The position numbers were made by a program, and so were the translations under genes. A stretch of 29,790 nucleotides of DNA from the UHGV virus genome UHGV-1477313; one strand, 5' to 3'. How positions within the stretch are numbered: the stretch's first letter is position 1; each line of letters starts with the position of its first letter. Below, piece after piece: positions 4,609-5,953 of this stretch. The DNA is from a virus. The notes under the pieces were generated by a model. That model saw only the letters and a program-made list of their open reading frames with translations, was not told the origin of the DNA and did no database searches.

Positions 4609-4645
4609 TTCGCAAAACGTGCTGGATAGCAAATAAATTATTTGA

Positions 4646-4665
4646 TACTGTATATTTATACAGTT
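4646..4665 (+). promoter_or_regulatory. LexA (SOS) box TACTGTATATTTATACAGTT
   Basis: CTGT-N8-ACAG with an AT-rich spacer, 18 of 20 matches to the E. coli LexA consensus TACTGTATATATATACAGTA. It sits about 20 nt upstream of the start codon of the Tum-like gene. Confidence 0.8.
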
Positions 4666-4684
4666 ATTGCATGGAGAAGATAAG

Positions 4685-4942
4685 ATGCAGCAGTATCACT
4701 ATCCACTGGAAGACGGATTTACCGAAAGGATTCACACGCCGGGAGGCGTCAGATCACTGGTGGAGGGATCGCACTTGATGAAATTACTCCGGGAGCTCGA
4801 TAAGGATGGATTTAATGTCGATGGCCCACTTGCCGAACTGACTGCACTGATTAACTACGTCACCAGCTCACAGATGTCTATGCGGGATCTGCAAACACAT
4901 CTCGACTATTGTGCCGAACAATTACGAAAACAAACCAGATAA
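4685..4942 (+). CDS. Small antirepressor-like protein (Tum-like), predicted LexA-regulated
   Basis: 85-aa ORF from ATG 4685 with a GGAG SD 8 nt upstream (the ORF track extends it to TTG 4667). Its C-terminal half (LMKLLRELDKDGFNVDGPLAELTALINYV..MRDLQTHLDYCAEQ) aligns with the C-terminus of the downstream Bro-N antirepressor (LMNLLNQLQDDGHDVSGAAAELTTMFCYI..LRDIQTHAEYISDK). Confidence 0.7.
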   Translation: MQQYHYPLEDGFTERIHTPGGVRSLVEGSHLMKLLRELDKDGFNVDGPLAELTALINYVTSSQMSMRDLQTHLDYCAEQLRKQTR

Positions 4943-4973
4943 GGTTTGCAATTACCAAGTGGAGTGCTTATAT

Positions 4974-4988
4974 TTACCTTTGCGGTAA
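4974..4988. promoter_or_regulatory. Operator-like dyad TTACC-tttgc-GGTAA nested inside a longer inverted repeat GGAGTGC...GCACTCC (4961..5004)
   Basis: Read directly. Confidence 0.4.
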
Positions 4989-5080
4989 ATTTACATCGCA
5001 CTCCTCTTGTGCCATAGTAATCGGGCACTGGAAAAATCCAGTGCCGGGATTGGCGTCCCGGATTACTAAAAGGCGCATTC

Positions 5081-5100
5081 ACCGCGCAAGCGGTTTTTTT
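5081..5100 (+). terminator. Putative intrinsic terminator (short GC stem with GCAA loop, then 7 T)
   Basis: ACCGC-GCAA-GCGGT followed by TTTTTTT; ends a roughly 150-nt structured segment downstream of the Tum-like gene. Confidence 0.45.
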
Positions 5101-5257
5101 ATGCGTATAGCACGGCCACATTCGTATTATGGTGGGCTGTGTGGGGGCACCGAAAGGTGCGCCGGGTCCTTTTAGCCGGTTACGCCAACCCTGCACAGTT
5201 CACCACCAACCGATTGGCGTCGGTAGTGGTGATTAACCAGACTAAAAGGTAACCACT

Positions 5258-5953
5258 ATGACAGCTACAAAAAGCACGTCCATTTTTTCTTTCGAATCCC
5301 AAGCCGATATACGGGTAATCGTCATTAATGGTGAGCCATGGTTTATCGCTTCAGATGTTTGTCGGGCTATAGGCATAGCAAACCATCGAGATGCTGTTCG
5401 AAAACTTGATGATGATGAGAAGGGCGTCGCTTCAACCGACACCCCTGGCGGTGAGCAAGAATCGATCATCATCTCCGAGTCAGGCCTCTACACACTGATC
5501 CTCCGCTGCCGCGACGCAGTGACACCAGGCACTATCCCCTACCGCTTTCGCAAATGGGTTACAGGTGATGTTCTTCCTCAGATCCGTCGCACCGGAAGTT
5601 ACATTAAAAACTCGCTCCCGCAGGAAGAACGCATAAAGATGGTTGCCGACCAGGTAGCCAGCGCCACAGCATCAGCAGTGATGCAGGCAATGAAGGTAGA
5701 GAACAAAACCTACAGCGCCCCACTGAAGCCCGGCTACCGCAGCCTGATTCATTCGCCGTCTGGTGTTCTTGGCCTGACGGAGAACTCACTGCTGATGAAT
5801 CTGCTGAACCAGTTACAGGACGACGGGCATGACGTATCGGGCGCGGCGGCGGAGCTGACCACCATGTTCTGCTACATCGTCGGTGTGAGCAAATGCCTGC
5901 GTGATATCCAGACGCACGCGGAGTACATCAGCGACAAAGCAGGGTTCTTCTGA
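5258..5953 (+). CDS. Antirepressor with N-terminal Bro-N domain and C-terminal Tum-like domain
   Basis: 231-aa ORF; the N-terminus (FESQADIRVIVINGEPWFIASDVCRAIGI..HRDAVRKLDDDEKG..SESGLYTLILRCRDAV..FRKWVTGDVLPQIRRTG) looks like the Bro-N/antirepressor fold. AAGGT SD precedes the ATG. Confidence 0.85.
   Translation: MTATKSTSIFSFESQADIRVIVINGEPWFIASDVCRAIGIANHRDAVRKLDDDEKGVASTDTPGGEQESIIISESGLYTLILRCRDAVTPGTIPYRFRKWVTGDVLPQIRRTGSYIKNSLPQEERIKMVADQVASATASAVMQAMKVENKTYSAPLKPGYRSLIHSPSGVLGLTENSLLMNLLNQLQDDGHDVSGAAAELTTMFCYIVGVSKCLRDIQTHAEYISDKAGFF

Follow-up and report, generated by a model that had tools for sequence, protein, structure and literature searches.

Why should a prophage carry two neighbouring antirepressor genes whose products share a domain, and does a single signal switch both of them on? 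The question is raised by the viral genome UHGV-1477313, a DNA of 29,790 nucleotides (nt; the whole stretch is called "the window" below), which corresponds to an epsilon15-like podovirus prophage of Escherichia coli, genus Uetakevirus. Its antirepression locus consists of a small gene, ant (4685-4942), and a longer one (5258-5953) encoding a Bro-N protein of 231 amino acids (aa). An initial annotation had read them as an "SOS-wired pair." The locus as a whole is quite probably best explained by two differently wired antirepression modules that share an effector domain, one under LexA (4594-4942) and the other behind an RNA leader (4946-5953). The surrounding 1.7 kb is 95-98% identical to phages phiV10, TL-2011b, and vB_EcoP_ZX5. 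The region 4590-5960, 100% identical to a prophage inserted beside guaA in E. coli CP8-3_Sichuan, is matched in 998 of 5,426 complete E. coli genomes.

What, then, is the small gene? Its 85-aa product, Ant85, is 88% identical over 83 residues to the Ant of Salmonella phage SPC32H (gene "ant," KC911856), and it matches both chain E of PDB entry 5D50 ("Anti-repressor protein," E 5.5e-47) and PHROG 450. The gene announced by the initial annotation is real, but its start lies at 4685 rather than 4686: the ATG at this position follows a GGAG located 8 nt upstream, and the plus-strand reading frame closes with a stop codon at 4940-4942. A tblastn search of phage genomes finds a homologue of Ant85 in every Uetakevirus, the orthologue in Salmonella phages SPC32H and SPC32N being labeled "ant: anti-repressor protein." The family, which comprises 274 clusters at 90% identity, is restricted to Enterobacterales. 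Neither Pfam nor NCBIfam has a model for SPC32H-type Ant (a Pfam DUF724 match to Ant85 fell below the cut-off and was disregarded), and in all eight E. coli genomes listed among the matches, the RefSeq label of ant is "hypothetical protein." In SPC32H, the repressor Rep is reportedly not cleaved upon SOS induction, its inactivation being ascribed to the small Ant, and the ant promoter is said to be repressed by LexA.

The near-consensus LexA box that had been described in front of the gene was borne out. Located at 4646-4665, TACTGTATATTTATACAGTT departs from the E. coli LexA consensus TACTGTATATATATACAGTA at only two positions (18/20); it is the sole site in the window within three mismatches of that consensus, and 100 shuffles yielded none. 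No second box of this quality exists in the window, and none serves the second antirepressor gene. When the upstream regions of nine Uetakeviruses are aligned, the box falls at the same position in SPC32H and in the window. The sole difference between SPC32N and SPC32H in the aligned upstream stretch is a change from ACAG to AAAG within the box, and SPC32N is said to be constitutively lytic through a point mutation there. Conservation was also followed in 80 relatives, which are IMG/VR viral contigs with an Ant85 98-100% identical and which inform on micro-variation, not deep diversity. Across this set the arms CTGT and ACAG are invariant, with variation confined to the central 8 nt (ATAAATAT in 56 contigs, ATATTTAT in 15, and ATAAACAT in 6). 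The bare core CTGT-N8-ACAG occurs three times in the window, with 0.39 expected; the other two copies, at 19499 and 24040, were dismissed as LexA boxes and put down to chance because of their GC-containing centers and poor flanks. The latter of these, CTGTAAACCAGTACAG (24040-24055), whose flanks and center are poor for LexA and which is probably a chance occurrence, lies upstream of a Phage_gp49_66 family gene (24123-24494).

That the box overlaps the ant promoter, as also claimed, is less firmly settled. No clean sigma-70 promoter that would overlap 4646-4665 emerges from a consensus scan, and the overlap, still uncertain, is suggested by candidate hexamers and by homology with SPC32H. Read by eye from the alignment of the nine Uetakeviruses, with its conserved block CTGGATAG, the candidate plus-strand promoter (4623-4656) would be either TGGATA-17-TACTGT or TAGCAA-18-TATATT, the -10 hexamer lying inside the LexA box in either case. 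Farther upstream, between the tailspike gene and ant, stands the palindrome TTACCTTTCAGGTGA (4594-4608), a candidate Rep operator that aligns with epsilon15 ATTACCTTACAGGTAAT, annotated in GenBank as "protein_bind repressor, lysogeny."

Because it combines an 88% identical orthologue with a homologous LexA box, Ant85 is, as far as its sequence tells, a new member of the characterized SPC32H-type family of LexA-controlled antirepressors. The same two observations support the proposal that a LexA-gated small antirepressor brings about SOS induction without repressor cleavage. According to this scheme, LexA bound at 4646-4665 would block the ant promoter in the lysogen; DNA damage would remove LexA and allow Ant85 to be made; and Ant85 would bind the non-cleavable Rep and strip it from its operators. 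No Rep is encoded within the window, and the protein would come from elsewhere in the prophage: in the matching E. coli prophage, Rep has the same sequence as phiV10p40 and shares 42% identity with SPC32H Rep. The final 200 nt of the window had no counterpart in the stretch of that genome used for the comparison, which points to an offset in the coordinate mapping or to a different source strain. A review describes the Ant of Kim & Ryu 2013 as produced after LexA self-cleavage and as an inhibitor of the repressor, and a secondary citation presents SPC32H Ant as a tetramer that breaks the Rep tetramer. The likeness to the SPC32H switch, the system of Kim & Ryu 2013 (J Virol) and Kim et al. 2016 (PNAS), extends to the candidate repressor-site palindrome upstream of the LexA box, to the position of ant, which has the tailspike gene on one side and a virion structural gene on the other, and to the presence of a Rep-family repressor in the same prophage lineage. 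It stops at the second module: SPC32H and epsilon15 have a single one, without isrK, C4, or second gene, and SPC32H Rep is only 42% identical.

The initial annotation had also likened the small gene to Tum of coliphage 186 and to the Gifsy antirepressors. The logic of the mechanism is indeed the same, since 186 Tum, Gifsy GfoA/GftA, and N15 AntC are likewise small proteins directed against a non-cleavable repressor and expressed from a promoter with a LexA box. Homology, however, is not supported by sequence comparison. The alignment against 186 Tum that had been suggested gave a BLASTP E of 0.077 over 47 residues, covering only the DinI half of Tum, which is not significant, and all-against-all and profile comparisons found no similarity of Ant85 to Tum. 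None was found to GfoA either (taken as Gifsy-1 ORF STM2621.1n, after dinI), and homology to AnrP, P1 Ant1, KilA, and Icd was tested and rejected. With no sequence relationship, the window also differs from these systems in having neither a DinI-like half nor a dinI neighbor at the ant locus, and it does not show the dinI-antirepressor-irsA operon layout.

The second gene (5258-5953, plus strand) encodes a modular protein. As announced, it is a 231-aa Bro-N protein, with PF02498 at residues 17-107 (5306-5578; Pfam E 6.2e-21), followed by an SPC32H-Ant-like C-domain (5705-5938). Residues 2-79 of Ant85 align with residues 150-227 of the longer protein at 41% identity over 78 positions (BLASTP E 1e-16). 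The shared domain is therefore significant, as had been claimed, but it covers nearly all of the small protein and not just its C-terminal half. The fusion C-domain matches PDB 5D50_E as well (E 1e-13). Among the relatives, conservation of this C-domain reaches 93-100%, and its identity to the resident Ant stays at 41-43% throughout. The N-domain is a Bro-N (two variants with a mutual identity of about 67%), an AntA (PF08346), or an ORF6N (PF10543), the last being the family of the N-domain of Gifsy-1 AnrP. Because the C-domain is conserved while the N-domain is swapped, the Ant-like domain can be read as a constant effector mounted on interchangeable N-domains, a picture that replaces the two simple paralogous modules of the initial annotation. 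An alignment further reveals that Klebsiella stand-alone Ants and fused C-domains have the block DGHDVSGAAAEL in common, where the stand-alone Ants of E. coli and Salmonella carry DGFNVDGPLAEL; this hints at recombination between stand-alone and fused copies.

A close homologue of the fusion has been handled in the laboratory. ORF4 of phage vB_EcoP_ZX5, an open reading frame (ORF) labeled "anti-repressor" at the same locus, is 97.8% identical to the 231-aa protein, and its overexpression lowered the prophage titer about 1000-fold, from ~1e9 to 1e6, with less lysogeny (PMC9782041). That study differs from the present analysis in that the small Ant was left as hypothetical and that the RNA leader and the Ant-like C-terminus were not recognized (PMC9782041).

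How is the fusion gene controlled, if not by LexA? The 315 base pairs (bp) that separate it from ant hold two RNA genes that the initial annotation had missed, both identified by Rfam on the plus strand. The first is isrK (5025-5100; RF01394, 76.7 bits, gathering score 50), which ends in an intrinsic terminator made of a stem (5081-5094) and seven T residues. The second is a C4 antisense RNA (5125-5210; RF01695, 77.7 bits, gathering score 45). C4 displays two short elements, b' CCTTTTAG in a hairpin loop (5168-5175) and a' ACGCCAA in a junction (5182-5188), each having two exact complements in the same leader. Those of a', with the sequence TTGGCGT, lie within the isrK hairpin loop (a1, 5050-5056) and downstream of C4 (a2, 5214-5220). 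Those of b', with the sequence CTAAAAGG, lie within isrK (b1, 5066-5073) and over the Shine-Dalgarno sequence of the Bro-N gene (b2, 5242-5249). In the predicted fold of the leader (minimum free energy -105 kcal/mol, z = -5.7), a' and b' are both unpaired. In Gifsy-1, Stx phage 24B, and APSE-1, the Rfam family RF03163, "c4-a1b1," overlaps the 5' part of isrK.

The pairing partners change together. Across the window, 24B, APSE-1, Gifsy-1, and P1, the a'/a1/a2 and the b'/b1/b2 sequences covary, and nine specificity combinations are found over 78 loci with a C4 match, 70 of them among the 80 relatives (arrangements and specificities in the relatives were counted with nhmmer and blastn). Within these 70 close relatives, b' is CCTTTTAG, CCACTTAG, or CTACTAG, and a' is ACGCCAA, AGACCAA, or GTGCAAA. 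Seven more of the relatives have no C4 within 2.5 kb, and three contigs end too early to tell. The leader itself matches 279 phage records, and the same type of leader stands ahead of annotated antirepressor genes in 24B, APSE-1, Gifsy-1, and P1; the Ant profile misses the antirepressors behind these other isrK-C4 leaders.

A promoter of its own can be proposed for this leader. The consensus scan predicts TTTACA-17-CATAGT with a TG extension (4990-5018, plus strand), a site conserved in a Klebsiella phage and in those relatives that carry an insert ahead of isrK (see below), and other isrK/c4 loci have strong promoters at the equivalent position. A second promoter-like site from the same scan, TTGCAA-17-TATATT (4946-4974, plus strand), lies farther upstream. 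Abutting the -35 hexamer of the isrK promoter is the palindrome TTACCTTTGCGGTAA (4974-4988), an exact match to the pattern TTACC-N5-GGTAA and another candidate Rep operator, which is kept with variable central bases in relatives and in the Klebsiella phage (TTACCAAAATGGTAA). With at most one mismatch, this pattern is found seven times in the window, where 0.54 would be expected (985-999, 4594-4608, 4974-4988, 6020-6034, 23512-23526, 26653-26667, and 26671-26685), and repeat copies also stand between rep and cro in SPC32H, phiV10, and the matching E. coli prophage. Among the loci compared, the palindrome accompanies the isrK promoter only in the window and in the Klebsiella prophage ST11-OXA245phi3.2; five further isrK/c4 promoters, those of Stx 24B, APSE-1, Gifsy-1, Hafnia phage yong2, and P1, are without it. 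By analogy with C1, which represses the c4 operon of P1, we infer that Rep may repress the isrK/C4 operon here. Copies of the palindrome occur at operon boundaries, for instance upstream of the small terminase gene, and in relatives some of these boundaries have pairs of palindromes 62 bp apart, two of them beside annotated terminators.

Taken together, module 2 would be a cassette of the P1-immI / Gifsy-1-isrK type. The order of events that we infer starts with the promoter flanked by the Rep-operator-like palindrome, which would drive isrK, most transcripts stopping at the isrK terminator. Read-through would yield both C4 RNA and the mRNA of the Bro-N::Ant-C fusion, and C4, by pairing with a2 and b2, would occlude the ribosome-binding site and silence the fusion protein, unless the isrK decoys a1 and b1 titrate C4. 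Once made, the fusion would inactivate Rep-type repressors through its Ant-like domain, either to reinforce induction after a first removal of Rep or to act on repressors during superinfection.

The annotation of the P1 genome lists in series an operator, promoters, a1, b1, c4, a2, b2 (on the icd ribosome-binding site), icd, and ant. The window shares with P1/P7 immI the C4 family and the order a1 (7 nt), b1 (8 nt), C4, a2 (7 nt), b2 (8 nt). Like P1 immI, it has b2 on a ribosome-binding site (that of icd in P1), a repressor-operator-like site at the promoter, and an antirepressor as product. It differs in lacking an icd homologue, in having a terminated isrK-type small RNA as its a1/b1 region, in encoding an antirepressor unrelated to P1 Ant1, and in being a podovirus located at guaA. 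With the isrK-orf45-anrP locus of Gifsy-1 it shares the same two Rfam matches, the isrK and C4 (STnc1160) leader with a terminator that must be read through before the antirepressor gene, and an identical a' and a1/a2 sequence (ACGCCAA / TTGGCGT). The b specificity differs, AnrP (ORF6N with another C-terminus) is not homologous to the window protein, and in the window alone the isrK/C4 locus adjoins a LexA-controlled ant.

In Gifsy-1, transcripts that pass the isrK terminator form an mRNA that is not translated, and providing IsrK in trans increases the translation of anrP about 100-fold (Hershko-Shalev et al. 2016, PMC4825925). The processed RNA STnc1160 described in the same study (PMC4825925) maps where Rfam places C4 in the present analysis. 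Within the Gifsy-1 sequence (L007 34131-34316), the STnc1160/orf45 RNA is the Rfam C4 match, IsrK bears a1/b1, and the b2 site (TCACCG) adjoins the anrP Shine-Dalgarno sequence. Because IsrK holds a1/b1, STnc1160 corresponds to C4, and b2 lies beside this Shine-Dalgarno sequence, the Gifsy-1 IsrK may act as a C4 decoy, a reading absent from the discussion of the 2016 paper.

The P22 immI region (mnt-arc-ant, with the sar RNA) is another podovirus antirepressor region beside a tailspike gene and with an antisense RNA layer. The immI-like position that had been recognized next to the tailspike gene (1541-4489, minus strand) is correct, and antirepressors by a podovirus tailspike gene, together with an antisense RNA layer, are common to both loci; the RNAs and proteins are different. 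In this comparison, the ORFs 6061-6213 and 6198-6674, the only two neighbors considered, gave no Mnt/Arc-type or other Pfam domain, the YafO match in the second being described separately below.

Are the two modules nevertheless one unit? In the window, 82 nt separate the ant stop codon from isrK, with no terminator in between; this adjacent arrangement is seen in 46 of the 80 relatives. In 24 others, ant and isrK are set apart by an insert made up of an opposite-strand gene encoding 242 aa and a GC-rich hairpin terminator, with the isrK promoter kept. The insert (e.g., 2765-3509 in the relative L009) encodes a protein with an N-terminal membrane anchor and a Cys-rich C-terminus. Since the promoter survives the insertion of a gene and a terminator in these 24 relatives, the two modules read as autonomous. 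The "SOS-wired pair" is therefore not supported: no LexA box accompanies the second gene, which comes with a predicted promoter, an operator-like palindrome, and an isrK/C4 leader of its own and is separated from ant in 24 of 80 relatives.

Several observations weigh against the two-module explanation. The hexamers of the ant promoter are weak and ambiguous. The assignment of the palindrome to Rep, which follows from its location and from the epsilon15 annotation, could be mistaken, as the site could bind Cro or another regulator. Since the E. coli and the Salmonella phages share just 42% identity in Rep, against 88% in Ant, cognate binding of Ant to Rep is an assumption. The fusion gene of the phiV10 reference (p23 + p22, L001 3840-4519) is frameshifted within the Ant-like domain, for which reason this copy is probably inactive, and the gene is missing from 7 of the 80 relatives as well as from SPC32H and epsilon15; frameshifted in one phage and absent in others, it is dispensable. 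Finally, the model published for Gifsy-1 invokes translational coupling through orf45 and not occlusion by C4 (PMC4825925). A positional counterpart of orf45, of doubtful significance, does exist inside the C4 of the window (5129-5236, plus strand, 35 aa) and starts at the same AUGG. Unlike orf45, which overlaps the anrP start, it ends 21 nt before the ATG of the Bro-N gene. It has no family match, and its length, checked by hand, varies from phage to phage (P1, 14 aa; APSE-1, 15 aa; 24B, 31 aa).

Among the alternatives, the one that survives best sees the second module mainly as an inter-phage weapon or second immunity system, comparable to P22 and P1 immI, with a minor part in the SOS induction of its own phage. 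We give it somewhat less than an even chance, and the same holds for its detailed form, in which an incoming genome would express the fusion and inactivate the resident Rep unless the prophage supplies a matching C4. The C4/target specificities diversify where Ant85 is 98-100% identical, which is the pattern of heteroimmunity determinants such as those of P1 and P7. The N-domain is shuffled, in some genomes the gene has decayed or can be dispensed with, and the C-domain is a stable 41-43% paralogue, not a copy of the resident Ant. Yet the overexpressed ORF4 of ZX5 acted on its own phage (PMC9782041), and several E. coli Uetakeviruses reportedly have one and the same Rep (PMC9782041), so that few distinct targets are evident.

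The two-module explanation can also be extended into an undescribed two-tier circuit of E. coli Uetakeviruses, an idea that must be called tentative and, in its entirety, rather doubtful. LexA-gated Ant would remove Rep and so unlock the Rep-operated, C4/IsrK-gated fusion operon; the SOS-induced ant transcript would at the same time deliver the a1/b1 decoy that titrates C4; and the diversifying C4 would make of the second tier a phage-specific device for commitment or against rivals. One step of it is plausible for the adjacent arrangement, in which an SOS-induced ant transcript ending in isrK would carry the a1/b1 decoys. DNA damage would in this way be coupled to the RNA switch.

More unlikely is a single SOS unit, the reading of the initial annotation, in which the release of LexA would send transcription through ant, isrK, C4, and the Bro-N gene and thereby co-induce both antirepressors. 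The short gap free of terminators, shared by the window with 46 of 80 relatives, speaks for it, and a transcript from the ant promoter ending at the isrK terminator would carry a1/b1 and could relieve C4, as IsrK does in trans in Gifsy-1. However, the second module keeps its own conserved promoter and has no LexA box, the opposite-strand gene and its terminator stand between the modules in 24 of 80 relatives, and expression would remain blocked by the isrK terminator and by C4. Least likely, the fusion might not be an antirepressor at all, Bro-N binding DNA or serving another process and the Ant-like tail being an oligomerization module: the function of Bro-N is indeed unresolved in the literature, and as SPC32H Ant is tetrameric the domain could merely oligomerize, but it is the Ant-like domain that is conserved, with the unrelated AntA or ORF6N taking the place of Bro-N, the genes behind the isrK-C4 leaders of Stx 24B, APSE-1, Gifsy-1, and P1 are annotated as antirepressors, and overexpression of ZX5 ORF4 pushed the phage towards lysis (PMC9782041).

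The two modules are framed by virion genes on the minus strand, with the tailspike gene (1541-4489; Tail_spike_N and GDSL esterase domains) on one flank and a large virion structural gene (7443-9917) on the other. The GDSL/SGNH esterase domain, a possible O-antigen deacetylase, is annotated in the tailspike of a Klebsiella relative as well. Beyond the fusion gene, the ORF 6198-6674 encodes a protein with a match to the YafO toxin domain (PF13957, E 2.4e-8) and is overlapped upstream by a 50-aa ORF (6061-6213), with an operator-like palindrome just ahead of the two. The stretch 6020-6674 may be a repressor-controlled, toxin-antitoxin-like moron; the YafO-type ORF region is absent at the equivalent position in SPC32H and epsilon15. 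A tRNA-Arg (anticodon TCT) is located at 23848-23924, as also in SPC32H.

Each component of the locus is already known. Their combination, an SOS-gated Ant next to an RNA-gated fusion bearing the same effector domain, appears undescribed in the searchable literature, and the same appears to hold for the role of the SPC32H-type Ant domain as an effector that is shuffled downstream of a C4 leader. The identity of the locus is now settled, with one gene coming from a structurally solved and experimentally proven switch and the other from a widespread isrK/C4 cassette. Because the small gene has no Pfam or NCBIfam model and is labeled "hypothetical protein," the SOS-inducibility of these E. coli prophages is invisible to annotation. 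The Salmonella IsrK, studied as an unusual dual-function RNA, becomes tied to the a1/b1 logic of P1 c4 through the model of IsrK as a C4 decoy. In these phages, nature offers a system in which the same repressor-binding domain is under the control of a protein (LexA) and of an RNA (C4), and whose shuffled N-domains and diversifying RNA specificities would be useful for studying both the commitment to induction and the conflicts between prophages.

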